Shown here piece by piece: positions 13,574 to 49,638 of a stretch of DNA of 64,000 nucleotides. This stretch comes from a virus. The notes below the pieces were generated by a model, which saw only the letters and a program-made list of their open reading frames with translations, ran no database searches and was not told the origin of the DNA. The position numbers and the translations under genes are program-made. Positions within the stretch are counted from its first letter, which is position 1, and each line of letters begins with the position of its first letter. Where the stretch lies: IMG/VR virus record IMGVR_UViG_3300045988_174698; one strand, given 5' to 3'.

Positions 13574-15451
13574 ATGAAGATAAAAAGATATCAAACAGGG
13601 GGTATATACTATACCCCCTTTTCTAGAGATTCAATAGCTCAGCAAGAATCTCAAAACACACCAAGTACAACAACAGATAATAAAAAAGAAGAACTTATAC
13701 AGAAGGAAATTATTAATGTACTGAAGGAAAATGGGCTTCCTAATGATGTTGATTATTTTCTGTCTAGAGCTAACACATTTCTAAGAAAGTCTCAAAATTT
13801 AGGATCGCTGTTTGAAGGAAACCAGGAAACATCTTACGATATGTCAGATTTAATTAGAATACAATCTTTGGCTAATAGAATTAAACATAATAACAGTTTA
13901 TATCAACAGGCTAGCAAACAAATTAATGATGAAGGAGCTGGATCAGAAGTAGCTATTACTAATACTGGTGGCATGTATGTTTTTGATAATGATAATGGCG
14001 TTAAAATAGTATCTTTAGATACATATTATGAAAATCCAGATAAATATAGGATATTAACAAACTCGGAGTTAATCCGACTTAGAGAAGAACAACCAGAGTT
14101 AGCTTACAATAGTGATATTCTAACTGACTTATCAAATACTGTTGGCATGGAGTCAATAGTAGATTATGTGAAATCAACTATTGGTGCTTTTGGTACTAAT
14201 AAATCTTCAAATCAATTTGATAGATATACTTCGAAGCAAAAAGATCAAATTGAAAAAGGATTTGAACAGTTGTTGGGTTTTGATTCTCCTGATGGCATAT
14301 ATAAAGTTACAGAATCTACTAATACTTCTGATCAAGGATATAGTGACGATAAAAGCTTAGAAGCTGCTGTTAATTATCTTTATAGAACATTACCTAGAAA
14401 TATGAAAAATGTCTTAAGAGCCAATGCAACAGCTGAAGGTTTAAATCCAAATGACCCCAAAGATGTTCAAAATTTATTAAAAATAGCAGTTATTGAACAT
14501 ACTGATCATACTAGGGAAATTAAACAACAATTAGATTATGATTCTACAGCTAGTAGTGCTAGTGGAAAAGGGTCATCAAGTAAACAGGTTGAAATGACTC
14601 GTGAGGAAATGATTACTACTGGAAACGGAGGCGTTCAATATACTCCTATAACTATTGCACATTCTAAGTCTAAAGGAGGTATAAAAGCTTTAGCACAGCC
14701 TTATGGCAAACCAATAGATACCACTGGTAAGCAAATTGGTATGGGTACACTTAGAGATGTGTTTGCTAAAGAAGATAGACTGGGATCAAGTTTAGCTTTA
14801 AACTCAATAACATTTGGAAATAGATTACTTACAGAAAGTGAATTAGATAAAGTAGTTTATGATGGAGTAAGTAATATTGAAAGAACATACTTACCGATTG
14901 ATCAAAACATATATGTGACAACAGGTAAGAAAACTCCTGATCTAGATGCACAAAATAGGTTTGAAAAATTCCAAGAATGACTTAATGCTGGATATGGAGT
15001 CACTCCAAATAGTATAACTATGAAGTTGAACGAACTAAATCTTGATATTTATAGAGAACCAGAAACAGGAGAATGAGCATTTAGAGAAGCCCATCCTTTT
15101 ATTATTGTCAATGGGTATGTTAGTGATAAAGCTGTTGACATTGATGACTCTGAATGAGTTGATCATGTAAATAGGGACGAGGGGTCTTATATATTTGATT
15201 TATACTCTAAATATATTAATTATGGGTCAGATACTCCTTCGAAAAGTAAACATAGAAATAACTTTGATGGAGGATTATTTGGTATAGGAGACGCATCCTC
15301 AATGTATAAAAGTGCTATATTTATTCCAATAACAGATAGTGCTATTGCAACAGTAGTATCTAATCATCAATTAACAAGTGCTAGTAATTATACAGATATG
15401 TTAAATCGCAGGAGACTACTACAGGAGTCTCAAATACAGACAAATTTCTAA
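13574..15451 (+). CDS. large virion protein (~625 aa), unknown function
   Basis: Frame 2 with internal TGAs (14978, 15040, 15136...); TAA at 15449. Confidence 0.55.
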
Positions 15452-15453
15452 TT

Positions 15454-18400: not shown

Positions 18401-21400
18401 TAGCGTTTGATAACTACACTGATTCATATCTTGGCTATTTAGAATATATTAAGAATAATAATCTATATCTTGACTTAGTTGACTCAGATTTATCTAGTAT
18501 ATTATATAATTGAATTCAAATTAATAATTTAGAGAGTAATAATCAAGCTAATTGAATTAATAGAATTCAGTCTATTCTTGACAGTCAAGGAATTGACTTA
18601 GAAGGAATGGATGATGATATAGCAAACTTATCTAGTGAGTTGATTAAGATAGTTGATTATATTAAAAAGAATAATATTTCAGGAGCATTAGATCACTACA
18701 ATTATATTCTTAGAAGCGATCTGTCTGATACATTTAGTAATATATATCAGCTTGATTTAAAGAGTATACTACCAATTTTATTACCTTCTTTTGGAAGTAG
18801 ATCGTTCTATGATTATTTAGGAGAGGTACTAAATATCAAATCACAAATTGATACTAATCCTATATATGAATTAATTGAAGCGGCTTCAAATGTCGCTGGG
18901 TTAGATAATCAAGAGGTAACTAAATTAATTAGAGAGGAACAATTTAACTTTATTAACTCCAAGAAAGTAGAAGACTTTATTATCAGAGATAGACATTCTC
19001 TTGATAAATTAAAAGAAACAGTTAAATTAATTGATGCTATCTCAGCAATACTTGATGCTTCAGTAGATGGGGGCTTTAATAGCAAAATTAATGAATTTAG
19101 AGAATCATTAGAAAAAGAACTGTTACCTATAATAAGTGTTCAAGGGCAAATTAATATTATTTCTGATCTAGCACGAGTTAAGAATCAGTTAATAACCTTA
19201 ATAGATATTTCTGAAAGAAATCAATCTCAGAAACTTAGAGAGCAGAGAGATATAGCTATAAATATGAAGTCTAAATTTATTAGCTTGCTAACTGATGATA
19301 CTTCTATTCTTAAGGATAGGTTTATTAAGATATTCGGTATTGATTTAAAACAATTATCCTCAGATATTGAAATACCTTCTAGTGGAGAAGATATAGACTT
19401 TCCTCAATTAGAGCAAGCTTCTATAGCATTAGAAACTCGTATTTTTGAAGCAGTTAAAGATCTAAATCTTTCTGCTGATGAAGTAGCCGACAAAATAGTT
19501 TCGTTATTTGATAGTAATGAACTAGTAAAGTCAGCTCCAACTACTCTTAGTAAAAATCCTAGCACTGAGATTACTGTATATGATCAAATGGTTTATATTT
19601 CCACAATACTATCAACTCCTTCTCAAAATTTTTATAAAAAATTAAAAGAAGTAATTAGTAGCGAGGAATTTAGAAACGCTCCAATATTTTCTCAAGAATA
19701 CGCAGTAAGAGTAGCTTATTCTCAAATACTAAATAAGGATTTATTTAATAGTATTATAATTAAATTAAAAGATATTTTCCAGGATAATCCTGATACATAT
19801 ATTAAAACTAAAAGTCCTTTATTTAATTTTACAGTAGTATTTGGAGGAGCTGGAGTTGGTAAGACTAAAGGTGTTGCATTCTTATTAAAGAAGATGTTTG
19901 AAGATGCAAATTATATAACCTCAGCTCCAACGAGAAAGCAAACGGATAGACTTACAGATAGTGTTGAAAGTGATGGAAATTCATTTACTAAGAATGAACT
20001 TATAGAAAAAATACTGGGACGACAAATAAAGGATTCTGATATTTCATACATTAAGGATGGTGATAATAATATTAGTATTACTAGTAATGTTAATATAGAA
20101 GTTCTTAAAACTAATCTATTTGGTGATTCTAAGAATAAGATCTTATTTATAGATGAGATTAGTTGATATGATAGAATAGAGCTAGAGTTGATTAGTAAAT
20201 GAGCTAATACTAATAATGTATCAGTAATAGCATTTGGAGATTATAAACAGAATGCAGTTCAAACAGTATTTGGAAAGGAAGTTATTGATAGTGGAATTGA
20301 GGATACTATTAATATTAAAACTCCTGATCTTATTGCTCCACTACGACCTGATAATATAGCTAAATATGATAATTATATATCCTTGTCTCAGAGATTAGAC
20401 GAGATATATAAGCAATATTATAATAACCCTGCTATAGAGCCAAAATATCTTAGTGAATTTGCTGAAAAGTATTTACAATCTAATCCTATTGAGTTTAAAT
20501 ATTTTGAAGATAGTTTTATATTTGGAGGAGAAAAAATTATTAAAGAAGATGAAGTATTTTCACATATAGAAAAGTTAAAACAGTATTCTTCAGATATTGC
20601 AATAATTACGGACAATCCTAAGAAATATAACACTACCAAAGGAGTTAAAATTGTTCCTTTAAATAGTGTCCAGGGTGATGAATTTGATTATATTATTATT
20701 GATAAAAACTTTGGATTAACAAATGAAGGTAAAAGTCGAGGAGAATTCTATAAATTAAAAGATTTATATACTCTAACTCAACGATCAAGAAAAGGATCAA
20801 TTATTGTATCTAGAGGACTAGGAAATACAATATCTTCTAAACAAGATTCGACATCATCTGGAAACATTGAAATGCCAGAATCTCAAATTCAAGATTTTAA
20901 AGAATGAAGAATAAATGCTATTCCAGATATTACTGAATCAATAGAGTTTGAAGAATATCAATCTCAACAGCCTAATAATGAACAAGCTAACGCTCCTGTA
21001 GAGCCTGCTAATAATTCAGTAGCTACAGAAAATAGCACTCCTACTACAAGCCCAATAGAAAGAGATACTGAAGTTGAGTTTACCAATCCTATAAAGCCAG
21101 AGGTACACCAAGTATCTATGGCTCCTGAGCATACAGAACCTGTAAATAACTTACAAAATACTGTTACTTCAGATATCGAGACTAGTAAACCTATAACTAG
21201 ACCAGCTAAACCAGTAGTAGGAGCTAATGAATATGTAAGTACAGCGGAGAGTTGGATTGATTTTATTAATAATGATCTAATTAAATTTTATCAAACTACT
21301 GATAATAATTTGAAGAATATTATTAATACTACTCCTGAAATTACAGTACAAATTTCAAATTTAGTAAGAGCTTTCTTTGTTAATAATAGACATAAAGATA

Positions 21401-23142
21401 ATAAAGAAATATTTGAAGCATCTCTTAAAATATTGTCTAGAGAAATTCAATCGTTTATTCCTGGATCATTAGGTCGTAAGTATTCTAATGAGATTCTAAA
21501 TCTATTAAAAACTACTCCTAAATTTTATATTATACCATATAATAATAGGGGACTATTAGTAGTAAGATTAACATTAGATTCTAAAACTGTTGATTTCCCA
21601 TTGTTAGTTACAGATCCAGTTATTGGAGAGTACTTTGGGGATATTTTAGCAGTATCGCCTCTTCGTAAGGAAAGTGCTATAGATTCAAATACTTCAGTTA
21701 ATTTATCAAATTTTAGACAATCAGCTATTAATCCAAAAGGATACTTTAGAGCATTTAATAAACCTGTTGTATTATCAGTAAATTCTGCGGAGAGAACTAA
21801 ATATAGTGGCGATCAACAAGAATGATTAAATCAAAGAAATAATGGTAATACATTTATGGTTGTGTCAAGTGACCCTTATGTAACTGATGATGATTTTAAA
21901 GAATTCTTAGCAGCCACTACTAATGGTTCTATTAAAACATATAGTACTCAACATGATTACAGATTTGCTCTAATTGGGATGAACTGATTAGTGTCTATAG
22001 ATGATATCATCAAGCAGTCTAATAATAGGAAAAATTATGATATTATTCCAGGATATAGAAGCTCAGTGATTGCTAAGTATGTATATAAAGTAGCTCCAGA
22101 TAGAGTTAGAGAGGCTATTAGAATACATTTAAATACCTCTAAATATCCTAACCAGCGTATTAGAATAAATGGTATAGTGTATAAAGATGCAGAATTAGCT
22201 ATCCAAAATATATCTAATGATTCTAATATAGAGTTTGGTTATGAAATTAATGGAGACTTTAAATATCAGTCTGGAGTAGCTACTATGAATACTATTTTGT
22301 ATAAGATAGTAAATAGAGAATCAGTAATTTCAATTAATGATGGTCAAATTGAACAATTAAAACAGTTATGTTTAGAGGCTCCTGAATTTAAAATGGGTAT
22401 TTATGGAAGAGATGTTATTGATACTCAAGTTAATCCTGCTGGAGATTATTGGTATGCTATTCAAGGTCATGATTATAATACTAATATACCCATGATTATT
22501 GGTAATGACTATAGTATTGATTTGTCAGCAGTTAATAACGAACAAGCAGCAGAAGATAAAAAAGTAGTAGAATCTGTTAACGAACAATTACAAGAGTTAA
22601 AACTTAATGAAGTTATTGTCACTAAAGATAACATAGATACAGCTATTGAATCTATTAATTCTGAAATAGCTTCTAAAGTTCAATCTACAGAATTTGATGT
22701 AGTTAAAGTTGAAGGAAAAGCAATTACAACAGAATCAGTATTTGATCCTAAAGTAATGATATCTAATCAACTAAATACTCCAAAAGAAACTATTCATTTT
22801 TATAGAGATAAGATTTCTGACTTTGAACCATTTTTTGTATCTTTGCAAGACAAGAATTATACATACGTTCTTGAAAAGAAAAATAATGTGTGAAATATTA
22901 GAACATTTAATATAGCAGATGCGTATATTAAATTTAGAGATGCTATGAATAGTATGAGTGATATTATTGTAGCTAATCCTAATTTAAGTAAGTATATAAC
23001 TGCTTTAATATTAAATCAGGAAGTAGATAAATTAACTGCAGAATCTTATTGAAATGAAATTAATAGTAACACTGCATTAATAGGGCTGCAGCAAGAAGTT
23101 GAAGAATATTTAATTAATAAATTAAAGAACAATGAGTGTTAA
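15454..23142 (+). CDS. giant virion protein (~2560 aa) with embedded SF1B (Dda/RecD/Pif1-like) helicase/ATPase domain
   Basis: Nine track ORFs (15454..15945 through 21991..22893) are all frame 1 and separated only by TGA; TAA at 23140. Helicase-like motifs: Walker A GGAGVGKT (~19850), motif III AFGDYKQNAVQ, motif VI VQGDEFDYIIID and LYTLTQRSRKGS. Confidence 0.65.
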
Positions 23143-26100
23143 GTGTGGATACACAATTAAGTATTATCCTCTATTAAGCAGAGTCTTTAATACAAGTACA
23201 GATGAAGAATTTAAATCGTTTTTAGAGGAATATTTTATAGATCCAGATAGTGTATATAGAATGTTCTTGGGTGGGATTTCAACAAATCCTACCCAGACAT
23301 CTATATTTGAACCTAAGAAAATTAGTAGTAGAACTGGATGAGAAGTAAAAACTGATAGTAAATCAGCACAACAGTTTTATATTGGACAGTCTGTTCAATA
23401 TAATAAGATGACAAGTGACTTTGTTAAGAGAATTATATCTTTATCAGTATTTGATCTAGCAAGTGAGCAGTTTATAGATGCTAATAGAAAAGTTGGAGAT
23501 CTAACAGTATTAAATAGAGGTATTTTTGAATACAAAAAGGAGTTGCTATGATATGTATTATCATATTTAGGAAAACCTTCTCCTAATTTGGATAGTATGA
23601 CTGACGTAGATATTGAATCTACTATAGAAAGTACACTATCTGAATTTAGTAGTTATATAAATAATTCTCCTAATCTTGATAATAAATATTATCAAGCTTA
23701 TAATTCATATGTAACTCTTAGAACATTTGACGATCTATTAAAGCAATTAACACCATTTGTCTCTATTAATCCAGAATATAGTAAGTCTTCAATATATTCT
23801 AGAAATAGATATATTTATAATGGTCCTAATGTTACTCACTATACAGGATTTAGTACTAATGAATTTATGTCTCAAGAAGAAAGTGTTAGTGACCTTGCTA
23901 AGATACTCTTAAATTATCTTCCAGAAGTTAATATAAATGGAGATATTATTGATGGGACCTCTATTTCGTTATCTGGGTTTAATTCTGTAATGGGGAAGAT
24001 GAAATTATGAGCTGAAGAAAGTTCTAATCCAGAAGTAAAAGAAGAGCTTAAGAAAGGAACTAAAATGGATGTTAGTAAGCTCATATCTTTATATGAACAA
24101 GAACTATCTAACAGAAAAGTTTCTAATCCTGAGCATATAACTTATTTAAGATCAAAGTTATCAGCTATAAAAAGATTTATATATGACTCTAAAATGCATG
24201 AGGATATTAAAGACATGTTTACACATCTAATGGAAAAAACTGTTCTCTCAAGTTATGTTAGTTATGAGCAGAAAGATGGTAAAAGCATGGAAGTTAGAAA
24301 TCTAACACAACGTCCTATTAAAATGCAAAGAGAAGCAATAGTAGAAACAGTAAAGGCTATTACTCAATATTGAAAGCAAAATAGATCTAGATTTAATGAG
24401 TTACTTAGGAAGTATAATGTTAGAGGTATAGGTTCTGTTATATCTATTGGAGATAGTAGAATTACATTAGAGGGAAATGGAAAAATATCTATTACTGGTC
24501 CTATAAGTAATTTTAATGAAATAGTTGGGGACTTTGTTAATTTATTAATATCAGATGATTTTGATCAGGTAGCTAGTCAAGTATTTCCAAATAGTAACTA
24601 TACTAAGTATGAGTTATATGCTCCTGTATTAGGAACTGTAATTTTTGATGTTATCAACAACAGTAATACTAATCTCAATTTTGGACAGAGTAATGATTTA
24701 GGTAGAGTACTCAGTGTTATTAATGGATCAGATACAGTTAATGTCATTAAAAATGCAGAAGGTAATAACTTACCATTATATCAGATGATTTGTTTAAGTT
24801 ATCAACATAATGGTGTTTTTAATGAAATTAGTAAACAGATTGATGATAAAGATCTATATATGTCACAGTATCATGACAATGCTGTATATAAAAATATACA
24901 ACATGTCAAAAGTCCTAAAATTCGATCAGAAGTAACTATTAATGGAGTTACAAAGCAATCTTCTGCTCTTACAGCAAATGACGTTATGCACTTATCTATT
25001 GTATATGACTTTTATCAAGGCCTAACTATGGATCAATCTCATACTGAAGGATCTAGGTCTAAATCAGGAATTGTTGGTATTCAAAGTCATGTATATTCTG
25101 ATAAGAATAAACACTTTGTAATGCAGTTTGATTTAAATCAAACATGAGATTTTGGCAACGGTAATTCATTTAATATCAAATCTGTCCTAGATCAGTACTT
25201 TAAATCTGGAAATGAAATTGATTTAGAACCTATAAAGAAAGCTTGGTTTGAAAGTAATAAATCTCAGATAGAGAGTGTGATAGAAACTATTCTATCAGAT
25301 TATAGACAAGTATATCCAAATAAAGAATTTAATTCTATACATGATATTAAGGTATTCTTAGCTAAGAATAAAATAAATAAGGTTAGGGAAGATTTTGCTA
25401 GAGCTAATGTTGAATTTATTGATGAAATACATGCATCTAAAACTAAAGCAGGATGAGTGTTTAATGAAACTTTAGAAAATTTTGCTAATATATTTAGTAA
25501 TAGAGATAAGTTTAATGAGTTTTACAAAAGTCAGTTTACTAAATTTTTAGAGGATAGTTCTGGAGCTTGGTCCACTATTTCAGTAGATCAAAATATTGTT
25601 AACTCTTTTAAACAGAATAATCCTAAATTTGTAAAGGATGGTAAACTTCTCAAAGAAGTTAATGGGGTTATTAATCCTTTATTAGGTGCTTATTTTATTA
25701 CCGATTCATTTCTATCAAATGAATATAATAAAATGATGGTCGGAGATGTCTATGCTCACCCTAATAAAGAAAAAGAAAGTCCTACCACAAATGGATATCT
25801 AGATCATAGTCTAGCTTCTAGATGAATATCTCAGGTAAAACGTATGGTTATTTATGGAGCTACATATCATTCTCTCGCACAAGGTTTAAAAAATGGAGTG
25901 CCAGAAAGAGTTAAAATGGCTGTTATGTCTGATATGGGATCAAATGTAAGTAACATATCTGGAATGTCTAGTACTGTAGATTCTATGGATGGTTCAGGTT
26001 ATACTAGTCCATTTATGTCTAGATGAGAGAATGTATCTCTTATAGACGCTGCAGTAGGAGCTAACAAGAAAACTATCTTTCATGATGTTGATGCTAAACA

Positions 26101-28672
26101 CGGACTACCGAAATTACTTAAATGGGCTGAATATGAGATAACTAATGCTATCAGAAGAAATAGTTCTGATACTAGTATGGAAAACATCTTCAAGAAAATG
26201 CACAGTTTGGAATTGCCTTTAGATGTTACCATAGATTATGACAAGCAATTTGATGATCTATTCTTTAGGGATAATGTCAGTGGAAAATATTATAAAATAT
26301 TACATATTAATATCTCAAATAATGTAGCTCATAGAGAATTAGTTGAAGTTACTAAAGAAGGTGTTCCTATTAATCCTGATAATATTATTACTAATGATAA
26401 GCTAATTAAAAGTATATATGATATAGATCAAACATTTGGTGGTGCATGAGCTATGAAAATAGATAATCGTACCAATAATCTTCAGTATTCAGAACATAAT
26501 CTAGATTATACTAATCAAATTATTTGTGATTATGATCTTAAAGATTCTATGATTAGTTGGTTGGTAAATAAGTCAGCTATTAAAGTTGGAGCTTCAAATA
26601 TTAATGATGTAACTTCTTGAAATGATGGTACTCCATTATTATTTACTACAATGTCTACTAAGTTTGGAGGTGTTCAAATGAATGCTGATCATGAACTTGA
26701 TGAAGCAGAGGTAACTGAAATGACTCAAATGATTAGTGGTCTTGAACAAAACGGATATACTCATCATTTAGCAACACGAGTTTATGAAGAAATTGGTAAA
26801 TTCTGTTATGATGCTATTAGTAAAATTCAGGATATTATTTATAATGGAAATAAGGATGATCTTTACAAAATATTTGGAAAAGCTGTTATTAACGCATTTG
26901 CTGGCGGTAGTAAGGATACTCTAGGTTTAGCTCAGTCCTTTGTAAAACTTGCTCAGGAAGGACTAGAAAATAATAATTTAGAATATAGAATACCTTTTAG
27001 TTCTTCATCTATCAATGGCATTTTTAACTCTACAGTCACATCCTCTCTAGTAAGAGATGCGATTAGGCGTCACTACAATGGTGTTGCGGCAGTATTAAAT
27101 CCCTCATATAATGTAGTTCAATATCATACAATTAATGGTAACAATTATCGATATGAAGAATTAATAGATTTAATTGCAGAAGCTACAAGAGGTACAACTT
27201 ATGAGGGAATGACCGTAGATGATGCTGTAAATAAAGTTTTTGTTGTTGATACAAATGGAAATGTGGTTGTAAATCCATTTATTGATGATATTACTCCAGA
27301 TAACCCAGTAGATTTTGAGGATACTATTATCGTATGAGGAGAAAATAATCAAGTAGTAAAAATAGATAAAATAGATAGTTACAATAAATATATATACTAT
27401 CGATTATATGAGCCTGGGCGTATTAGTAGGTGGACAACTAAAGCTAAAAATCTTAAAGGATCAGATACTACTTTTGTAGCTAATGGACGTAAATATAGTA
27501 TGTTTGAAAGTCCTTATACTCAGGTGCTTCATTATTTTATTGAAAGTGATAGTAGTGCTACTAATATAGAGACCCTTAGAGATGAGCTACGTAGTGAAGT
27601 AATAAAATCAATACCTAATGAAAGAGCTGATGAAAATGTTATAGAGAATATAGTAAATAGCAGATTACAACTTATAGTAAATGAAATTACTCCATTTATG
27701 CCAAAAGGATTTACAGAAAAAACTTCATTTACAAAATATATTCCTAATATTAAAAAAGCTTTAATCAAAAAGCAGCAATCTGTTCTTAATAATTTAGCTG
27801 ATGGTAAGCCTATTGATTGAGGAGGATTAATGTTAAATGCTACAGAGTATAAAGTTATCCCAGCACAGATTATTATGGGTAAGCTTTATGCTAAAGAGTT
27901 AGGATTGCTTCCTGGTGATTCTATTGCTAAAATTAAGGAACAAGGTCCAGAGTTCTTTATAAATAGAATTGATGGCTACTACAATTTCTATGATAATGCA
28001 GATGAGTTAACTTATGACTGAACTTTATTTGATGGTGCAGGAAATAAGTTATATGTTAAACTTAGAAATCCTAAGATTAATGAACTGTTTACTAATTCAT
28101 CTTTAGATTCTGATTATAAGATTATTGATGGTTCAGTATACTTTAATGGTAATGAAATCTGCTCTTCTGAAGGAAAACAATTCTTAAAATATACTGATTC
28201 TGATAATGTTCAACATAATGTAGTTATTATTGATTCAATAGATAGACTCAAAGAGTTAGAAAATTCTAAGATGTTTACCTATACTCATAGAAATTATAGA
28301 ATTGATAACTATGTTGACTTAGTAAAAGAAGAGTTTGGAGAAGGAACATCTATTCAATTAACTTACCGACCAACTGGAAGTAGAAAATATACTACTAGTA
28401 ATATTGCTGAATTTAATGATAAACTTGAAATAATTCGAGCATTAGCTGAAAATCAAGATTATAATTGAACTAAACAAATTAGAAAATTAGCAGAAAATAA
28501 GTATAAATCTTTTGAAAAGAGTTTATATTTTGTTGGTACACGTATTCCTTGTCAGTCTATGCAATCGTTTGCTCCTATGGAAATTATTACATTTACTGAT
28601 AGTGAAGTAAATGAGGTATACGTTCCGACACAAATTTTCTACTTGGAAGGATCTGACTTGGATAAACTTTCT
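23132..28672 (+). CDS. exon 1 of an intron-split giant virion gene (~1847 aa of a ~2830-aa product)
   Basis: Eleven track ORFs from 23132 to 28468 are all in frame 2 and joined by TGA. The boundary is placed at U 28672 by frame arithmetic and a UUUCU/GGAAA P1 pairing. Confidence 0.55.
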
Positions 28673-29577
28673 ATGTTCAAGTAAAACTCTTTTAATTGCT
28701 GGAAACCCCTAACGTAAAGACGAGGGCAATCAGCAGCCAAGCCGTAACAAAACGGAAGGTTCAACGACTAATATTAATAACTTAATAATTCGACTTTAAT
28801 AGTATGAAACAGTTAAAAACACATTTAAATAAAATAGGAAGAAATTTAATAATTGCTATGTCTATAGGGGATGGGCATATAGCTAAAAAAGGATATTTAG
28901 ATATAAATCATTGTGAAGCTCAGAAAGAGTATTGTTTATGAAAATGGCAACTTTTAAAAGATAATGGAGTTAAAGTTGGCACGTTTAGAGAATGAAAACA
29001 AATAAATGGATATTCTAAAGGTAAAGAAGTAACTAAATATGGATTTCAAACAACAGTACTTGATTTTTGTAAAGTACTTAGACGAGTTGAATATGAGTAC
29101 GGAAAAACTAAATATAATAAAAAGTTACTTAAGCGACTTGGAGCTCAAGGGTTAGCAATATGAATAATGGATGATGGAGCATTACTTCGTAGATCTAAAA
29201 CAAATAAAGATGGAATACGAACATATTCAGGATTTTATATTACAATATCTACGTATTGTCCATTAGAGCAAGCTAATGATATTATAGAATATTTTAATGA
29301 AGAATGAGATATTTATCCGACTAAGGTTTTTGATAAAAGGCAGCAATCCTATATAATTAATTTTTGTGCCAGAGAAGGTAGAAAATTAATAGAAATTATA
29401 AAACCTTATATGTGTCCCCACATGATGTATAAGGTTCTTCCTGATAAAATAGAATGTGAAAACTACATGAAGTTATTAAAAGAAACAGCTGAAACTGCTG
29501 TTGAAGGTACACTAGAAATAGTGGAAATGGAGAGCGCGAAAGCGAAGATATAGTCTGATCTATATAGAAATATATAG
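28673..29577 (+). mobile_element. group I self-splicing intron 1 (905 nt) with a homing-endonuclease ORF
   Basis: Conserved group I P7 elements GGTTCAACGACTA (28758-28770) and AAGATATAGTC (29545-29555). Frame is restored with omega-G at 29577. It contains a LAGLIDADG ORF. Confidence 0.6.
28804..29553 (+). CDS. LAGLIDADG homing endonuclease (double-motif, ~250 aa), intron-encoded
   Basis: Motif 1 LIIAMSIGDGHI; motif 2 LAI-W(TGA)-IMDDGALL; C-terminal PYMCPHMMYKVL resembles I-SceI PYLIPQMMYKLP. The TAG stop lies inside the P7 3' strand. Confidence 0.85.
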
Positions 29578-30260
29578 TTAACACAATTGATAGATAAACA
29601 ATATATCCTTGGCTATTCATTATCATCTAATGGTCGTATTAATACTGATGAAAACTCAGCACCTTATTTACGAGCTGATGCATTAAGAAATAGAGTTGTA
29701 GATGGTGTATTTAGTATTATTCTTAATCCTAGAAACCAAATTAACTTAACAATGCCAGTAACTACTGATCGAATGCAAAGTCTTGCTAAAAGATCTAAAA
29801 TGGGTGAAGCTGCTAAATATATGAGTCCTTACAATCCAGCAAGTAAGTACTTAATGCAGATTCAAAATATGGTTGGTAAAGCAGTTATTGGTAATGTTGC
29901 TACGGCATTAAAAAGTTTCTTTGCCTTAAGCAACGTATATAATACCAAGTTTAGAGAGATTAATGAAGCAATTCAAACTGGTAATTTTGATATAGCTAGA
30001 ACGATGTTAAAAAGATATACATTTATCCATAATGATAGACTAATAACATTAGCTAATGTTAATATGGAAGTATTTGAGAGTCTACCTGAAAATACTCCTG
30101 AAGATATTAGACAAACTCTAGCTCAAGTAATTAGTTATGAGGATGCCTTAGATGATCAATCTATGGTACTTGGAGAACTTTTAAATAGTGCTACTGATTT
30201 TTTCATCAGAAAATTATTGAATAACTTGCCTATATTAATTTTTATTATTATCTTTGCACT
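29578..30260 (+). CDS. exon 2 of the split giant virion gene (~228 aa); the 3' boundary is uncertain
   Basis: Frame-1 protein-like ORF (track 29587..30264) lying between two complete sets of intron P7 elements. It is not HE-like. Confidence 0.5.
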
Positions 30261-31450
30261 ATAGATAAAAATAATTTAAAACAAATTAATATGGCAAAGA
30301 AATTAACAAATGAAGAAGTTGAAAAACTTCATAAAATGTATTTAGAAGGAATGACTTGTGAAGAAATTGGAAAACTTACAGGTCATAAAACAGAAACAGT
30401 ATCTAAATATCTAAAAGAGAATTATGATATAAAGCCTCAAAGAAAAATTGATTTAGTAATTTTATCAAAACTAGCAAAAGAGGGAAAAACAACTAAAGAA
30501 ATGGCAGAATATTTTAATGTACATCCTTCTGCTATATGCTATTGAAAAAAGTATTTTAATGAAGGAGATCTAAAGATTTCGCACCCTTTTTTGCAAGAAG
30601 ATCATCAATTATCTCATCTACAAGAACAAATGATTCTTGGCAGTTTATTAGGAGATATGAACATAGGAAAACCTAGAAAACATCATCCTACTTGTAGATT
30701 ATCCTTAGTACACTCAATTAAACAAAAAGAATTATTTATGAAGAAAGTAGAAATTCTTGGAGAATTTATGAGTAATTATAGAGAATATAGTTATTTAGAT
30801 AATAGAACAAATAAAATATATTCTACTATAAGAGGAAATAGTAAATCTCATAAAGTATTTAATGATATGTATAATAAACTATATATTAATGATATTAAAA
30901 CAATTACTAAAGAATATTTAGATATGATTAATCATCCAATAGCATTAGCTTACTGATTTATGGATGATGGAACGAATTCTGGACAAATAGCTACAAATTG
31001 TTTTTCTTTTGAAGAGGTTAAATTACTATCGAATTGACTAGAAAACAAATTTGGTATTATTACAACAATGCACAAAAATTTAAGAAATTATACTTTATAT
31101 ATAGTTGCTAGCTCTAGATTTGAATTTGATAATTTAATTTCTCCTTATATTATTCCTTCTATGAAATACAAATTAAAATTTTCTGAAATAGCAGAGTCAG
31201 TTAACTCCGTGAAAACGGGAAAGCCCTTAGAGATTTAAATACTAAACTATTATAGTAATATGATAGTGGCTAAGCTAATCACTTAGATATAGTAATAAGT
31301 TTAAATATTGGGTAATCCGTTACTAAGCTTCCTAATAGGAAGAAAGTTCAACGACTATCGAAATGCAGAAATGACAGAGTAGAGTAGAACTTAAGTAAGT
31401 TCGAAGTGCGGAGATCCTGTATAGGATAAGATATAGTCTGAACTCATAGG
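30261..31450 (+). mobile_element. group I self-splicing intron 2 (~1190 nt) with a homing-endonuclease ORF
   Basis: GTTCAACGACTA at 31346-31357 and AAGATATAGTC at 31428-31438. The putative omega-G at 31450 restores frame 0 of the downstream exon. Confidence 0.55.
30291..31238 (+). CDS. I-SceI-like LAGLIDADG homing endonuclease with N-terminal HTH domain (~315 aa)
   Basis: LGSLLGDMNIG (motif 1); ALAY-W(TGA)-FMDDG (motif 2, identical to I-SceI LAYWFMDDGG); LISPYIIPSMKYKL tail. Two in-frame TGAs (30543, 30954). Confidence 0.9.
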
Positions 31451-33761
31451 AAACTATGAGAGAACTTATGGAAACGATAAGTTCGTAACAAAATTGAATG
31501 CAAAGGAATTAATCCTTAAAAAAATTAATGCAGATACAAACTGGGTAGATATTTATACTATTTCTCTTATGTTAGGTGAATCACTAGATGAAATTGGTAA
31601 TTTAATGATTGATGATGATATAACAGAACTAGTAAATGATTTTACTACTAGTATGTTTAGTGATGAACAGAACTATGATAAAGTTCGTTATGTTGCTGAT
31701 AAAGCATATACCTCTGAAGGAGAGAAAAAAGAGAAATATCTACAATTGCTGGATAAAGTTATATCTGCGGATGAAGTACGTATCTTAGGAAAGATACTTA
31801 AAATTAATCAAGGTCTTCCTACAAACACTTCTGATTTATATAGTTATATTAAATCTATTGAAAAATATATAGAAAGTAGGTTTAATAGACAAATACTAGA
31901 AAAACAAGAAGAATATTTAAGAATTGAAAAGGAGTTAGAAAAAACTTGATTAACTCCTGAAAAGAAGGAAATATTAAAAGAGGAACGAAGATTACAAAAA
32001 ATATATCCAGAATTAGAAGAAGGGTCTTCATTATATAATTTCTATAATAAATACAATTTAATATATGAAGATATAAATGGTAATATTAGACATGGAGATT
32101 TAGAAGCCAAACTTGGTAAACCTAAAGAAGCTATAAAGGCTAGACAAGATTACTTTAAGTCTAGAAAAGAAATGGCTAATATCTGGCAATCTTTTGACTT
32201 AGTTAGATTTATTACCGATCCAATCTACAAACAGGAAAGTATTGAAAAATATGAACAAAATAAGGTTAATTTTAATATTTTGGAAGTAATCAGTGCAGTT
32301 CCTCATTTTAGAGAAATGTTTAATGTTCTTGCAATTAACAAAAGTGTTCTTAATAGTTTATCATCTAGAAATAGGTTAGAAGATATAATTCTAAACCAAC
32401 TTAGTAGGAACTTTGCTGGAGTTCGTATGGATGTAAGCAAACCACTAAATAAACTTGAAATTAGAACTATAAAAGATCAGATAGATAAGTATCTTATTAG
32501 ATCTTGGATTATTAGTAAAGGAATTGAAATAAATGTTCCCGCTAGTCCTAAGAATCCAGCTCCTTATATATTAAGATTGGATAATGAAAATAATATTAAC
32601 AAGTTTAGAAGTTATGTTGAAAACTACGCTATTCCTTTATTAAAGGATAAGTTGAAAAATAATAAGTTTGTTCAGCTATTAACTTTTGGACTAAGACAAG
32701 GAGTTCCATTCTATAAGCTACCACTTAACATGGTTCAAGTTGATAACACTCAGAAGACTAGGGCTTTATACGAAGAAGCATTATATGCTTTTAATAACCT
32801 TAATAAGGTCAAAATAACTGGTATAGATATGAACTTAGTGGATATGTTTTATCTATATAACTTAGTTGTTAATCAAGATAAATTTGGTCCTAATTCTATG
32901 ACTAGGATATTTGAAGACTTAGTATCATCTGGTAATGAAGATCTTCTTATATATGATTTTAATAATTGAATTGATAGTCAAAATATTGAAGACTTAGTTA
33001 ACAGATTTAGAACAGAAGAAAATAGTATTAGGTTTAATTTAGTAGAATCAACTCCTATTGTAGATGACACAAATTCTGATATTGGATTTAAAGAAACTCC
33101 TTTAGAAGAGGATATTGAAGAGGCTCAATATGAAGAATTAGCAGATAATCCTGTTAAAGAAAATAATGAAGTAGCTGAATATTATCAAACTAACCCTTCA
33201 ACTAAATCAAAACTTATAACAATAATTAAAGAATCTAATTTAAAAGGACTTCACATAGTTACAGATTCTGATTTAGTTAATGAAGATTCTACTACTAGAA
33301 ATGCTAGGGGATTTGTGAAGAATGGTGAAATCTATATTAATGTAGATAGAGCCGAAGATGATACAGTAGTCCATGAATTTAGCCATTTATATTTAGCAGA
33401 TGCTAAAGTAAATAGTCCTAATGAATACTATTCAGTACTAAGTAGAGTTAGAAATACAGGTACTTGGAAATATATGAGAGAGATACCTGAATATCAAAAT
33501 AAAAGAGGATCTGATTTTGATGAAGAGGTTCTAGCAACTTTAATTGAGCGAGCATATAATGAGGGATTAGGAGGAGCAGATTATGATGTTGCAATAGATG
33601 CTCTGAATCTTACATCTCCAGAATTTAAATCATTTATAAAATCTGATATTCTACCATCATTAGGAGAGACATTAATAGAGAATTATAAGGTATCTCAAAA
33701 GATAGCTACACTTAAAAATAAGCTCATCAAAGATAATATTATTAAAGAGGATTGTAAATAA
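31451..33761 (+). CDS. exon 3 of the split giant virion gene (~770 aa); contains an HExxH zincin-like motif (VVHEFSHLYL, ~33366-33395)
   Basis: Track ORFs 31494.., 32172.. and 33315.. are all frame 0 and joined by TGA; TAA at 33759-33761. Confidence 0.55.
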
Positions 33762-36700
33762 TGGAATGTACATATGAAACTACAATAAACGGTAAGAAGA
33801 TAAAGTTCAGCTCCGAAATGGAGCTGGACAACTTCTTATCAAGTAAATTAGCAGATTATCAAATAAACGAATCAGATTTAACTTTTCAAATTAATCCTAT
33901 AGATAGTACTATAGAGAAGGTAAATGCTATTACAAGTAAAGTTAAAAATGCTTCTATAGAATCTGTAATTATAAATGATGATGGAGATTCAGAAACTATA
34001 CTTAAGATTCCTGACTCAATAGGTACTACTAGATTTATTACATCTAATGGGGATCCTTCTAATATGCAAAAGGAATTAGTTCCTCCTTTTAACTTAAATG
34101 ATTTCTTAAAAAAAGAAAGAGAAAGATTAAGTGCAGAAGGAATGACTAAATCTCAAATTGATTCATATTTAGAAAAGTTACAAAAGTCTTGAACTCAGTT
34201 AACTGATTATGGTACTGAAATACATTCCTTATTTGAAAGTATTATTAATAATACTACATTCAAACCAACTAATTTGAGTGAAGAACAGGTATTACGTTTA
34301 ACTGAAGAATTTAAATCCTTTATTGAAGATATTAAATCTAAATATGGTAAAAATGCTAAAATCTTAACAGAAGTTCCTATAATATCAGATAAAATTCATG
34401 AAGCATATCAATCAGAAGGAATTAAAAGTATTAATGGTAGAATTGATATGCTAGTTATTGACCAGAGAGGATTTGCTCATATTTATGATTTTAAAGTTTC
34501 TAGAAAAGAAGTAGGAATATGAGAGGATACTAGAAACATACAAGGATCAACTACATGGCACTCTACTAAAAAACGTTCTGTGGGGTATCAGTTAGGAATA
34601 TATAAGAATATTCTAGCACAATATGGCATTACTGTAGGAGAAACAAACGTTGTTCCTATTAAAATAGATCCAGAATATAATGAAGATGGAACTATTAATA
34701 AGCTAAATGATGCTTATATTGATTTTACTAAAATAAAAGTAAATCCTAATGCTCCATATACAGAAACTATAAATACTATTCTTCCAGTAAAAACATTACT
34801 TGATGATATTGATCTTATAAACTCAATTCAGGAACCAATGACTAAATTTGTTCCTAATTATGCAGTAGAAACTCAGGTACAGAGAAATACAGTTACTGTG
34901 GATAAATACATTAATAATCCTAGAATTGTACACTATATTGATGACACTGACCCAGAACGAAAGTTTGGAAAATACTGAATTTGGAATAAATATAAGAAGA
35001 ATCGTAAAGTATATGCTAAAACAGAGGAGGAACTCAGAGAAAAAGTACAAGAATTAGTAAATGAAGAAAATAAACATATTCACTCTGAAATGTCTACCTT
35101 AGCGGATACCATTCAACAAATTATTGAAGGATATGGATCCATTGATGACTTAGCTGCTGATAACCCATTTAAGTCTGATTATTGTAAAAAGATATTTAGA
35201 AAATATTTAGTAAAAAAGAGTGAAACTGACTATGGATGAACTTTTCAAAATAATCCTAAATTTATAGCTGCAGGTATATTTGTATTTACTAAGGATGGTA
35301 AAATGGAAATAATATCTGTTACTCATAATGATATTCATTCAGTTGTTAATTTAGGTCTTGGCAAATCTATTCAAGGAGCAACTAAAAAGGATAGTGATAT
35401 TGATAGTCATGTAATAATGCAAGCATCTAACGGTAATATTGACCTTGTTAAAGTTATGTGTTTATTAAATAATATGCCTGAGGTACTTAAAGGATACAAA
35501 GTTAATAAAATAGAATCACATAATATTTGAATTCAAAAAGGTACTGAGACCTATTTAGAAACTCTTTTAGATAATTTTTCTGAATTATGCAGGATACATG
35601 GTATTACCAATAATCTTACATCTCAAAATTTTGCAACAACATTAGAAGCAGCTGTAAATATAATAAGAGATACTGCTGGTGAAGAATTACTATCTCACAT
35701 GGGTAATTGAGAATTTAATTTTAGTCCTAATGATATTGTAAATGGAGTTCCATTCATCTTGCAGAAAATGGAACAACTAAGAAAATTAAAATCTGCAGAT
35801 GGCCTTCGTACTGCTTTAAGAGAAGGCAAATGAAATTTTGATGATCCTATTCAGCTAGCATATATGTTATTAGGCAGAGCACTAAATAAACTTAACGGAT
35901 ACTCTATTTATATTGAACAAGATCCTAAATTGTGAGTAAATTTTTCTAGGGAAGGATGATACACTGGTTCATATGTGAATAGTGCTAGTAACTCTTCTTC
36001 TAAAAATATTCAAACATTAAGTAAAATATTTTCAGTAGCAGAAGCTCATATTAGAAGGAAAGAATTATCATACAAACCTAGGATTAGTAAAGTAGTTAAG
36101 GCTTTATATGAATACAATCACAGAAATAGACTTATTGGAGGTGAGGTTAAGTTTTTTGATAACTTATTTGTTAAGGATACAAACGGTAATATAGATAAAT
36201 CATTTAGACTAAAAAATCCTTCAGATAGTAGTTTGGCTAAGGAAGAATCTGACTTTATTAAGATGTTTCTAGAGATAGTAAATGATTTTAGATTTGATGG
36301 TAATCAAAGTAAAATAGCTAAAGCCATTGAAGACGGTTCTTACTATGAAGTTCCTGTTTCTATGGGAAGTACATCTACTCAAATCCACAATAAAGGATAT
36401 AAACAAGCCTTTACATCTAAATATAATGAAGCTTTAAACTTTCTAAAACTTCTTCCTGAACAAGAGCAACAATTTAGGGAATCAAAAGGAGAGCCAAAGG
36501 TATATAATAAATATAGATTAAATGGACTTAGTAGATCTGATTTAATTGAAAATTATGGGATAGATGGTCTAGAAACTCAACTTGAAGATTTGCTATTAAA
36601 TGTCATCCATACATACACAATGGAAGAAGTAATGAATGAATATCTTCCCAGACTTCAAGGTATTAAGATTGCCTTACAATATCAAACTGGGATGTTTGGA

Positions 36701-38161
36701 GTAGTTACTGATCATGTTTTAGAATATATAGATAAATTTATTGATGCTAACGTTTATAGTAAGCCTATTATGGCTAAAGAATTGCAAGGTGCATATAAGA
36801 TGTTATCTGTAGTTAAATCAATAACAACAGCTACCGCTCTCGGTTTAAATCTTAGATCAGGTATTCGAGAAATGATGCAGGGAATGTGAATACATCTAAG
36901 TAGAACTATGGCAGAAGCTTATGGAAAGGATCAGTTTACTAAAAAAGATGTTGCTAAAGCATGGGCTATTATATTTAAACAAAGTGTTAAAGATATTAAT
37001 ACTTTAACATTAATTGATGCCTTAAATGTGGATTATGGAATGGCTAACGCCGATCCCCATCAAGTCCAAGAGAGACTAAGTTCATCTAAAGCAGGTATTA
37101 AAAATTTAGATTCTGATTCACTATACTTCTTTAATAGAGTACCTGACTCGTATCATAGAATGGGATTATTAATTGCTAAGATGTTGCATGACGGATGTTA
37201 TGAAGCTCATAGTATTGTCAATGACCAACTTATCTATGATTTCAAAAAGGATAAAAGATTTAGTTTATTGTCTGATTCTAAAGCTGATAAGAATTCTATA
37301 GAGTATAAAAAGCAACATGCTTTATATACTGCTATGAGAGAACAGTTTAATAGAGAAGGATGAAATATCCAAGATGGAGATGATTTACCACGGGCTTATA
37401 CTATTCAAGAAGGAACTAGTATTAAATCGTTTGCGGAATTATGCTTTGGGCACTATGATAAAAGTACGCAAATGCTTATGAAACAAATGTTTCTAGGTGC
37501 TATGATTCTACAATTCAGAACATTCCTATCAGCTAAGTTTGAACAGTGGATATTAAAGCCAGATACTTATAATCAAGGTCAATACACTGAAAAATTTGAT
37601 GAAAATGGAGTAAGATATATTCGTATATTTACATTTGATGAAAAAGGAATTCCATCTGTTAGAATCGGTCTTGAAACAGAATTAAAACCTGATGATATTT
37701 GGGAACCTTACATTGAATGGCAAGGCAGATTTATGGAGGGAATTGCATATTCAATAATTAGTTTTGGAAAAACATTATACAAGTTAGATTTTAATGGTTT
37801 TAAAGAACTATGAAAAAATCCAACTAAAAGAGCTAATTTCTATTTATTCTTACATGATATGATCTGAATGTCTATACTTATGTGAATTGTTAAAGCTCTA
37901 TTTTTATCTGAAGAAGAAGATCTTGGACCTGTGGGTCATTTAGTAGGTACTTCATTATATACATCTTTTTCTGACGGGCCAATTACTAATATTATGGCTT
38001 CAATGTTTGGAGATTTAAATCCACCTATGCATAGCATAGTTGTGAACTTATATAGACAAACTTCTGGAATAATTACAGGAGATGTTAATTTATTTGATGC
38101 TGGTGTCAATTCATTTGGAGCATTAAATAGTTTAAAATATATTGGTGATCAGTTAGAATAA
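33761..38161 (+). CDS. giant virion protein (~1467 aa) with N-proximal PD-(D/E)xK (RecB/Cas4-like) nuclease motif
   Basis: Eight track ORFs 33761..38161 are all frame 2 and joined by TGA. 'GRIDMLVIDQRGFAHIYDFKVSRK' matches D...(D/E)xK nuclease motifs II-III (~34430-34510). Confidence 0.55.
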
Positions 38162-49253: not shown

Positions 49254-49638
49254 CATATCCATTTTAATTTTCGACTATATCTTAATTTTTATATCTAATT
49301 TGTTCTGAATTTAATTCAATGTAGTGTCATTTAAAGCCTTTATATGAAGCTTTTGTACCTTGACAACAACAATAAATGGATATAACCAAATTAAATTTAT
49401 AAAAATTCGCGGCGTTTCGAATAAAACCTTATAAAGTTTTATCCTACTCTCTTTCGAGATAGTCTGTGAACCTTGATCCTATAAGGATCCTTGGCTGCGG
49501 ATTATAATACTTATTAAGTTTTTACTTTCTCATAAGCGTTATCTTATGTGCTACACTATGTATTACTACTAGCTGCAGTATTAATAAGTTAAATTAAGTT
49601 CCCGCAATTAACCGCGTTTTACTTGCGCCACTATATTA
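49254..49638 (-). mobile_element. ORF-less group I intron (385 nt) inside motif A of the DNA polymerase
   Basis: Contains AAGGTTCACAGACTA (plus 49452-49475) and AAGATATAGTCG (plus 49272-49283), near-identical to the Tetrahymena P7 strands. P1 pairing UUGCGU/GGCGCAA. Splicing yields DIDVA-S-LYPSIII. Confidence 0.75.

Follow-up and report, generated by a model that had tools for sequence, protein, structure and literature searches.

How is a giant viral gene expressed when its coding sequence is broken in two places? The question is raised by a stretch of 64,000 nucleotides (nt) from the IMG/VR virus record IMGVR_UViG_3300045988_174698 (the window, over the whole of which positions are counted), in which coding sequence on the plus strand, from 23132 to 33761, is interrupted by two gaps. 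A preliminary description of positions 28673-31450, made from the letters alone, had proposed that the gaps are group I introns, each with paired P7 elements and its own LAGLIDADG homing endonuclease, that they interrupt one gene, and that the product is probably a conserved enzyme such as a virion RNA polymerase subunit. On the sequence analyses reported here, we consider it highly probable that the region is one polymerase gene of the gp66 type, with TGA read as Trp, interrupted by two related, IA-like group I introns that each carry an endonuclease.

Reading frame, junctions and identity of the interrupted gene

Under the standard bacterial code (table 11) the giant open reading frame (ORF) is absent, and the region appears as a run of short ORFs. 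When TGA was taken as a sense codon, the summed length of long ORFs (>=200 amino acids, aa) in the window rose from 9,585 to 19,414 aa, a co-directional block of giant ORFs appeared on the plus strand, and the region gave the code-4 ORFs 23126-28684, 28789-29553, 29578-30264, 30225-31238 and 31437-33761. TGA positions sit in Trp-like contexts in the translations; the polymerase exons use 16 TGA vs 9 TGG codons, and the two endonuclease ORFs taken together 7 vs 1. From these sequence features we concluded that the window reads TGA as Trp throughout. A tRNA scan of the 64-kb window returned no suppressor tRNA, and no tRNA of any kind.

Read in this way, the region is a single predicted gene with a product of 2801 aa, made of three exons and two group I introns (Table 1). 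Uninterrupted homologs fix the junctions to the nucleotide, at ...GSDLD^IDKQY... and ...SATD^NAKELIL... (a caret marks the junction), and the splice choice adopted is the sole one that combines conserved protein, a U as last base of the exon and a G as last base of the intron. Exon 1 ends at T28663 and exon 3 begins at A31497. The gaps of the preliminary description are therefore real, with its boundaries (~28672, 29578, ~30260 and 31451) off by 9 to 62 nt from the true ones (28663/29590 and 30198/31497); exon 2, given there as 228 aa, has 203. The end of exon 1, YLEGSDLD, contains the first and second Asp of a DxDxD motif, while exon 2 spans the third Asp and the bridge-helix motif and stops halfway through the probable trigger-loop motif. 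Two homologs (P0003 and P0017) also begin with MSVKCGY. Ligation would join GAU to AUA at junction 1 and GAU to AAU at junction 2, giving the predicted sequences GACTTGGAT^ATAGATAAA and GCTACTGAT^AATGCAAAG (in longer form ...GGATCTGACTTGGAT^ATAGATAAACAATAT... and ...AATAGTGCTACTGAT^AATGCAAAGGAATTA...) and the predicted junction-spanning peptides ...EGSDLDIDKQY... and ...NSATDNAKELIL....

Table 1. Predicted features of the polymerase locus, and the third intron, in window coordinates
Feature	Position	Strand	Description
RNA polymerase exon 1	23132..28663	+	1844 codons, 14 TGA=Trp; code-4 ORF; MSVKCGY ... YLEGSDLD
Group I intron 1	28664..29589	+	926 nt; endonuclease ORF between P7 5' strand and P3 3' strand (P7.1/P7.2 position)
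Intron 1 internal guide sequence GUUCAAGU	28675..28682	+	P1 with exon 28656-28663 (ACUUGGAU); best complement in an unbiased search
Intron 1 core, 5' part	28687..28770	+	P3 5' strand 28687-92, P4 28696-701/28731-36, P5/P5a, P6/P6a, R, P7 5' strand GACUA 28766-70
HE1 (endonuclease of intron 1)	28804..29553	+	249 aa, 4 TGA=Trp; double-motif LAGLIDADG; Pfam PF03161 (LAGLIDADG_2) E=8.7e-19, 68.5 bits; PHROG 11023
Intron 1 core, 3' part	29529..29589	+	P3 3' strand 29529-34, P8 29535-44, S and P7 3' strand 29545-55, P9 29560-77, tail UUAACACAAUUG with terminal G
RNA polymerase exon 2	29590..30198	+	203 codons; IDKQYILGYS ... LLNSATD
Group I intron 2	30199..31496	+	1298 nt; endonuclease ORF within P1 loop
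HE2 (endonuclease of intron 2)	30291..31238	+	315 aa, 3 TGA=Trp; PF03161 E=7e-35, 120.9 bits; N-terminal HTH_38 and HTH_23
Intron 2 internal guide sequence GUCAGU	31196..31201	+	Pairs with exon ACUGAU 30193-30198
Intron 2 ribozyme core	31205..31496	+	P3 31205-09/31409-13, P4, P5/P5a-c, P6, R and P7 5' strand 31345-57, P7.2, P8 31414-27, S and P7 3' strand 31428-38, P9 31443-60, P9.1 31462-84
RNA polymerase exon 3	31497..33761	+	754 codons plus stop; NAKELILKKINAD ... HEFSH ... IIKEDCK
Group I intron 3	49254..49638	-	ORF-less, 385 nt; splits family-B DNA polymerase in motif A (LIDIDVA^SLYPSIII)

That one gene is interrupted, as first supposed, is supported by its homologs. With the conceptually spliced protein as query, tblastn against three phage loci gave single alignments through both junctions (...GADYDIDKAYVMGF... 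and ...LLNSATDNAKELILNKINAG... in L003, ...TGSDFDIDKLYV... in L002, which is crAssphage cr114_1, and ...LLSAATDNAKELILSKINAG... in L001). Among 5.8 billion proteins searched, 27 relatives were found. Five of these (P0004, P0008, P0011, P0014 and P0015) have no break at either site, P0012 has none at site 1 and P0001 none at site 2, and homologs of 743-2865 aa are continuous over both junctions; over the two sites uninterrupted relatives read ...GSD(L/Y/F)DIDK... and ...ATDNAKELIL.... Searched with a profile, 1.84 billion cluster representatives yielded 2121 relatives, among them one-piece giants of 2700-4500 aa, and one protein of 2865 aa (P0028) carries the whole profile in one stretch. When 40 full-length relatives were aligned, the residues beside both sites (the G and three Asp of GSDxDID; the D, N and K of TDNAK) showed no variation.

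The exons could also be independent genes, whose products assemble as separate subunits in the absence of RNA splicing, with free-standing endonuclease genes between them. Split polymerase subunits exist in other phages, and in every related contig gene callers annotate each fragment as a protein of its own. We nevertheless find this arrangement very improbable, as the breaks cut through the DxDxD triad (D-L-D ^ I-D) and through TD^NAK, no start codon stands where the conserved part of exon 2 or exon 3 begins, the read-through tails of the exons are unconserved, and one-piece homologs are common. It is also at odds with the covariation of guide sequences and exon codons described below, which makes sense only if P1 forms and splicing is selected.

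Neither does the order of the pieces look like a product of assembly. The source is metagenomic, and a chimera of fragments from different phages might be imagined, but two IMG/VR contigs, one of 100.9 kb, are 98-99% identical to the window and share the region of intron 1 across the exon 1/intron 1 boundary; one (L013) holds the whole intron together with the 3' boundary, the other its first 600 nt. The order exon-intron-exon is repeated in L004, L005, L010 and L012, from different samples, and we give an artefact next to no weight.

The interrupted gene was identified with a profile (A4) of 12 diverse sequences around both junctions, drawn from the search of 1.84 billion proteins together with the cr114_1 protein. 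This profile matched chain A of PDB entry 6VR4, the DNA-dependent RNA polymerase gp66 of phage phi14:2, with E=9.3e-21 and 77.5 bits over 239 residues, so that the remote-homology search of the spliced product proposed in the preliminary description, which gave nothing with the single sequence, did lead to a virion RNA polymerase once a diverse profile was used. The strong alignment runs from RIPNQ through TGSDFDIDKMYV to GGKSGVGITAN and covers GSDFDIDK and the bridge-helix motif; a second stretch, weak (13.5 bits) but colinear, aligns ISAFLNAFVDNAKDPYIN with LSALLSAATDNAKELILAKLNA. In gp66, 1361-DFDID-1365 is the catalytic Mg site, of which every Asp is essential, the bridge helix spans 1529-1559 and the trigger loop 1598-1636 (bioRxiv 10.1101/2020.03.07.982082); the PDB chain is numbered with an offset of +14, which was checked at DFDID. 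The spliced motif GSDLDIDK aligns to gp66 1361-DFDID-1365. On this alignment intron 1 splits the catalytic triad as D-L-D ^ I-D, and intron 2 probably lies at gp66 D1612^N1613, within the trigger loop. The identification as a crAss-like, gp66-type virion RNA polymerase is thus supported; its packaging is carried over from gp66, by analogy with which the enzyme would be present in virions and injected to transcribe early genes.

Two further features of the protein family were noted. Within exon 3, at 33400-33450, the sequence ...VVHEFSHLYL... holds an HExxH zincin-like motif, which reads HEFSHL, HEFAHL or HELAHI in relatives, and the C-terminus ...EDCK is conserved. In cr114_1 (NC_055897.1, 1-12222) a 4272-aa protein annotated 'hypothetical protein' contains GSDFDIDK and 64 in-frame TAG codons; judged by its sequence, it is a TAG-recoded homolog of the polymerase, uninterrupted at site 1.

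Group I anatomy and covariation of the introns

Both gaps carry the paired P7 elements that had been reported in them. The R element GGTTCAACGACTA lies at 28758 and, with one mismatch, at 31345; with at most 2 mismatches it occurs 3 times in 64 kb, against 0.49 expected, and 3 matches were reached in 0 of 100 shuffles. The S element AAGATATAGTC is found exactly at 29545 and at 31428. These two sequences are the classical R and S consensus of group I introns, R forming the P7 5' strand and S forming J8/7 plus the P7 3' strand. P, Q, R and S elements follow in correct order in intron 1 (AAUUGCUGGAAAC, AAUCAGCAGCC, GGUUCAACGACUA, AAGAUAUAGUC) and in intron 2 (AACGGGAAAG, AAUCCGUUAC, AGUUCAACGACUA, AAGAUAUAGUC). 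The last 12 nt of the two introns are nearly identical (UUAACACAAUUG at 29578-29589, GUAACAAAAUUG at 31485-31496), and the P, Q, R and S elements are common to both. The two may be paralogs, one having moved to a new site in the same gene. Their anatomy, on which alone the subgroup is judged, suggests that they are IA-like.

In intron 1, P1 is predicted to comprise 8 base pairs (bp) with a U28663·G28675 wobble, and the terminal base is G29589. In intron 2 it would comprise 6 bp with a U30198·G31196 wobble, the terminal base being G31496; here the guide sequence lies 997 nt downstream of the 5' splice site, and it is the top complement within the 1298-nt intron. A P1 search was made over 13 introns (the three of the window and ten of relatives) for the longest complement of the exon tail that starts with a G opposite the U at -1. 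For 10 of these introns the top match, G31196 included, occupied the homologous position immediately 5' of P3; the homologous site ranked second in two introns, and L009, which has one P1 mismatch, was missed. A U at -1 and a terminal G were present in every intron examined, including the 10 related ones, with compensatory changes between exon and guide. A local hairpin, ACUGAU^UUUUUCAUCAG, was considered as P1 of intron 2 and rejected: it would put a U-A pair where U·G is expected, and relatives do not have it, while the distal GUCAGU does covary.

Guide sequences follow synonymous or conservative changes in the exon codons. At site 2, Thr codons ACU, ACG and ACA, each followed by GAU, pair with GUCAGU, GUCCGU and GUCUGU respectively, and the pair at exon position -4 shows three states in relatives (U-A, G-C and A-U). 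At site 1 the exon/guide pairs include UUGGAU/GUUCAA, UACGAU/GUCGUA, UAUGAU/GUCAUA and AUUAUGAU/GUCAUAAU. This covariation of guide and exon is the strongest single point in the sequence analysis, being expected only if P1 forms and splicing is selected.

The model of intron 2 (P1, P3, P4, P5, P5a-c, P6, P7 as a pseudoknot, P7.2, P8, P9 and P9.1) was scored on four homologs from different phages. Over 73 pairs and four homologs, 98.3% of 292 cells are paired. Changes on both sides were found in 28 of the 73 pairs, against 10.9±2.3 after shuffling (the observed value was reached in 0 of 500) and 0-3 in slid-register controls; only four sequences enter this test, and their kinship inflates the shuffle control, not the slid ones. 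P7 is invariant in the family and is uninformative on covariation. In P4, MAFFT had shifted the 5' strand by one column, so that 2 of 5 pairs were counted; inspection by eye, unscored, showed AACGG/CCGUU vs UCAGG/CCUGA, which amounts to three further compensatory pairs.

The intron 1 family was examined in explicit helix tables, with no shuffle control. A MAFFT alignment of ORF-stripped site 1 introns misaligned P3' and P8 and was set aside in favour of these script-checked tables, which are order-consistent from P1 to P9 for five introns of the site 1 region. Sequences of P1, P3, P5, P6a, P8 and P9 vary and yet always pair, as in P3 (CUCUUU/GGAGAG, UUCUUU/GGAGAA, CCUCUU/AAGAGG, UUUCCU/AGGAAA) and P6a (CCGU/ACGG, CCAU/AUGG, UUCU/AGAA, CUC/GAG).

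In short-range scans with RF00028, the group I model of Rfam, whose gathering threshold is 50 bits, the intron 2 core at 31190-31460 scored 48.5 bits (E=1.4e-11, model positions 41-253) and the 5' half of intron 1 at 28694-28772 scored 42.3 bits (E=4.5e-10, model positions 57-150). With the P1-P9 tables for both introns and the strong covariation of intron 2, these core matches uphold the proposal of two group I introns.

Several observations weigh against this interpretation or against parts of it. Splicing itself we infer from sequence. None of the three introns of the window, of which the third is described below, attains the 50-bit threshold of RF00028 (48.5, 42.3 and 37.8 bits), and no group I match was found by Rfam in the whole window or in three related loci at the gathering threshold, nor in 28500-31700 by E-value. 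The covariance-model scan suggested as a check in the preliminary description thus came out empty in its plain form, and ORF-free sub-ranges match below threshold. The whole-range scans are empty because the model is interrupted by the endonuclease ORFs and the cores do not reach the gathering threshold, which is an operational cut-off and no biological criterion; E-values in the short-range scans are 1e-8 to 1e-11. As to the polymerase, phmmer with the spliced 2801-aa protein matched nothing in PDB, a profile of 8 sequences gave no relevant PDB match, and no PHROGs family was found. The placement of site 2 in the trigger loop depends on the 13.5-bit stretch, which is colinear and includes the invariant DNAK. 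Finally, the constraint on a ribozyme, instead of transfer, could in part cause the higher conservation of introns than of exons on which lateral spread is argued below.

The low Rfam scores would also be expected if the introns were decayed, non-splicing relics, the polymerase copy being a pseudogene or the phage defective; the distance of 1 kb between the 5' splice site of intron 2 and its guide sequence points the same way. We hold this too to be very improbable, if slightly less so than the three separate genes, since the helices are all intact, with 98% of cells paired in relatives and compensatory changes, both endonuclease ORFs are intact, and every invariant residue is kept in the exons. 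Moreover, the arrangement recurs in several independent assemblies, and some exon 1 clusters of intron-bearing relatives are very large (5494 members for P0017 and 1630 for P0023).

A last group of explanations would restore the frame by other means, namely inteins, programmed frameshifting or bypassing, or the mechanism left unspecified for polymerases of the Zeta group of crAss-like phages. Yutin et al. 2021 (PMC7886860) described breaks 'within DxDxD' in Zeta polymerases as frameshifts and thought it likely that further mechanisms of expression, as yet unknown, are involved; a review of 2023 restates this (PMC10136315). In the window, the endonuclease ORFs lie out of the exon frame, come after stop codons and have their own ATG, so that they are not inteins; gaps of 926 and 1298 nt are far too long for frameshifting or bypassing; and both gaps show complete group I anatomy. 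We give such mechanisms hardly any credence.

The two-intron gene would then be expressed as follows. It would be transcribed as a single precursor, in which each intron folds, P1 being formed by the last 6-8 exon bases with the internal guide sequence, next to a P3-P9 core with a P3/P7 pseudoknot. Each intron would excise itself by the standard two-step, guanosine-initiated transesterification, and splicing would restore the Mg-binding DLD^ID and TD^NAK, the latter probably in the trigger loop.

Endonucleases and allele series

Each intron has its own LAGLIDADG endonuclease, as anticipated, encoded by a free-standing gene and with scores far beyond the PF03161 cut-off of 25 bits (Table 1). 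The pairs of LAGLIDADG motifs are AMSIGDGH and AIWIMDDG in HE1, GSLLGDMN and AYWFMDDG in HE2. Similarity to I-SceI is clear for HE2 (E=4e-16) and weak for HE1 (E=0.002); with its two N-terminal helix-turn-helix (HTH) domains, HE2 fits the earlier characterisation of an I-SceI-like enzyme with an N-terminal HTH. That it was placed upstream of P7 is right, and its position can now be given more specifically as the P1 loop.

Both ORFs overlap the ribozyme. In HE1, P3', P8 and J8/7 supply the final codons, and the UAG of the P7 3' strand doubles as the TAG stop. In HE2, the guide sequence and the 5' strands of P3, P4 and P5 encode the final 14 codons, and the TAA stop, within P5a, is conserved in ORF-less copies. 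An ORF-less relative of intron 1 (in L008) has extra hairpins at the position of HE1, and ORF-less homologs of intron 2 in L006 and L012, of 337 nt, have a short hairpin in place of HE2. Activity and specificity of the two enzymes are predicted from sequence. Both ORFs need TGA=Trp, so that the enzymes can be made only where recoded translation operates.

Just upstream of the HE2 start codon, at 30249-30293, the S15-Flavobacteria leader matches weakly (29 bits, E=0.48), driven by UAUCUUUGCAC. This sequence resembles TAnnTTTG, the -7 promoter motif of Bacteroidetes, and may serve HE2 as an internal promoter and point to the host; a search for the TAnnTTTG pattern at fixed spacing was uninformative. 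Promoter and terminator scans of the region gave nothing exceeding chance.

Relatives form an allele series at the two sites. Both sites are empty in the five uninterrupted proteins named above. L008 has an ORF-less intron (309 nt) at site 1 and an empty site 2, and L006 and L007 have ORF-less introns at both. Site 1 holds an endonuclease-bearing intron in L004 and L005, where site 2 is empty, and in L012, where site 2 has an ORF-less intron; L010 is like the window in having endonuclease-bearing introns at both sites. Other insertion points lie close by: after GSD in L009 (11665-12590, with a LAGLIDADG ORF) and after GSDY in L011 (11710-12059, ORF-less, 350 nt) and L001 (from ~7506), and in each of these the guide sequence is complementary to the intron's own exon tail. 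At least 3 distinct insertion points (after GSD, GSDY and GSDxD) thus occur within 6 nt at DxDxD, and one more in TD^NAK.

Intron 1 is 82-89% identical between genomes, vs 52-72% for 600 nt of flanking exon. For the intron 2 core, identity is 85-92% with the ORF-less homologs of L006 and L012 (flanks 55-64%) and 68% with the endonuclease-bearing L010 (flanks 54-56%). Better conservation of introns than of flanks fits lateral spread, and together with the site-identical polymorphism of presence and absence it gives indirect support to homing. The endonucleases would presumably cut intron-less polymerase alleles of co-infecting relatives, repair then copying the intron in; homing could also disadvantage rival phages.

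Genomic context and comparison with known systems

A third R/S pair, on the minus strand (R 49472..49460, S 49283..49273), belongs to an intron that had no place in the preliminary account of 28673-31450. This ORF-less intron (Table 1) has U49639 as last exon base and G49254 as last intron base, and scores 37.8 bits with RF00028 (E=3.4e-8, full model). Once it is removed, the DNA polymerase gives a full-length, one-piece match to annotated Crassvirales DNA polymerases, with 61-65% identity.

The polymerase gene is flanked by giant ORFs at 15388-23142 (2584 aa, with a P-loop, GGAGVGKT) and 33758-38161 (1467 aa), whose counterparts in relatives have AAA_19/AAA_30 helicase-like domains and a faint PDDEXK_1 match. 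On sequence, these flanking ORFs fit the 'transcription gene block' of crAss-like phages (PMC7886860). At ~38.2 kb the GC and AT skews change sign where gene orientation goes from plus to minus, which marks the border between the structural/transcription block and the replication block. Related contigs measure 146-176 kb. The size of the relatives, the TGA recoding and the density of introns make it plausible that the phage belongs to the Zeta group. A blastn of 8 kb against phages yielded, among the matches listed, only intron cores and no close genome.

CrAss-like phages are among the most abundant human gut viruses, and in some lineages the virion RNA polymerase, their signature enzyme, is unannotatable as one gene. 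In the present lineage, TGA=Trp and canonical group I introns, some of them ORF-less, would restore a single polymerase of 2801 aa, which offers an ordinary explanation for the Zeta 'frameshifts within DxDxD'. The default Rfam threshold misses these introns, and searches for endonuclease domains miss the ORF-less copies. The allele series (empty, ORF-less, with endonuclease) provides natural substrates for the study of homing and of competition between phages.

A wider proposal may be ventured, which we hold as tentative and on balance doubt: group I introns would land repeatedly in DxDxD and in the trigger loop when they invade the virion RNA polymerase genes of crAss-like phages; introns, many of them ORF-less, would together with stop-codon recoding fully explain the 'frameshifted' Zeta polymerases; and the endonucleases would be weapons between co-infecting gut phages, as for gp210 of phage PhiPA3, made only once a suppressor tRNA is active.

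Phage group I introns that carry a LAGLIDADG endonuclease and sit at a conserved site in an essential gene are well known, and the present system is a further case. What is added here are the exact junctions, the RNA fold by covariation, and recoding with ordinary introns, ORF-less ones included, as an explanation of enigmatic polymerase breaks. None of the papers covered by our literature searches places a group I intron in DxDxD or in the trigger loop of a crAss-like polymerase. A close precedent is the survey of Yutin et al. 2021 (PMC7886860), which found group I introns and inteins to be dense in Delta and Zeta crAss-like phages by way of their endonuclease domains, and marked LAGLIDADG ORFs in the transcription gene block (Fig. 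3 legend). The window and those phages belong to the same assemblage (the spliced DNA polymerase is 61-65% identical to Crassvirales polymerases), and they share TGA recoding in the host gene and in the intron ORFs, LAGLIDADG ORFs in the transcription block and a high density of introns. They differ in that the present break has been traced with nucleotide precision to a group I intron, for which RNA structure and covariation are given, and that relatives have ORF-less introns at the same site, which are invisible to a search by protein domain.

In phage PhiPA3, the endonuclease gp210, encoded by a group I intron in a virion RNA polymerase subunit gene, cleaves a related phage's allele that lacks the intron and so confers a competitive advantage (Birkholz et al. 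2024, PMC11620839). Both systems place a group I intron with a homing endonuclease in a phage virion RNA polymerase gene, beside conserved Asp residues; gp210, however, is an HNH nickase, acting in a jumbo phage with a multisubunit polymerase, whereas the window has two LAGLIDADG enzymes, known as predictions, in a single-chain polymerase of the gp66 type. The core of intron 2 shows 69-76% nucleotide similarity, over 100-170 nt, to phage group I intron regions, including the 'RNA polymerase beta subunit' of Bacillus phage AR9. With the introns of AR9, of SPO1-like and of Staphylococcus K-like phages it has in common the elements P, Q, R and S, and it too has additional helices in the interval from P7 to P3'; host genes and insertion sites differ. 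Compared to I-SceI (PDB 1R7M), from a mitochondrial group I intron, HE1 and HE2 have the same build of a single chain with two LAGLIDADG motifs; they differ in being phage-borne and TGA=Trp, and HE2 in its additional N-terminal HTH domains. The polymerase itself, finally, has in common with phi14:2 gp66 (PDB 6VR4) the RIPxQ, GSDFDIDK and bridge-helix motifs; the weak colinear stretch covers the trigger-loop motif VDNAKD. While gp66 is an uninterrupted protein of 2180 aa, the predicted 2801-aa product is very divergent outside these motifs and carries the HExxH motif in its C-terminal part.

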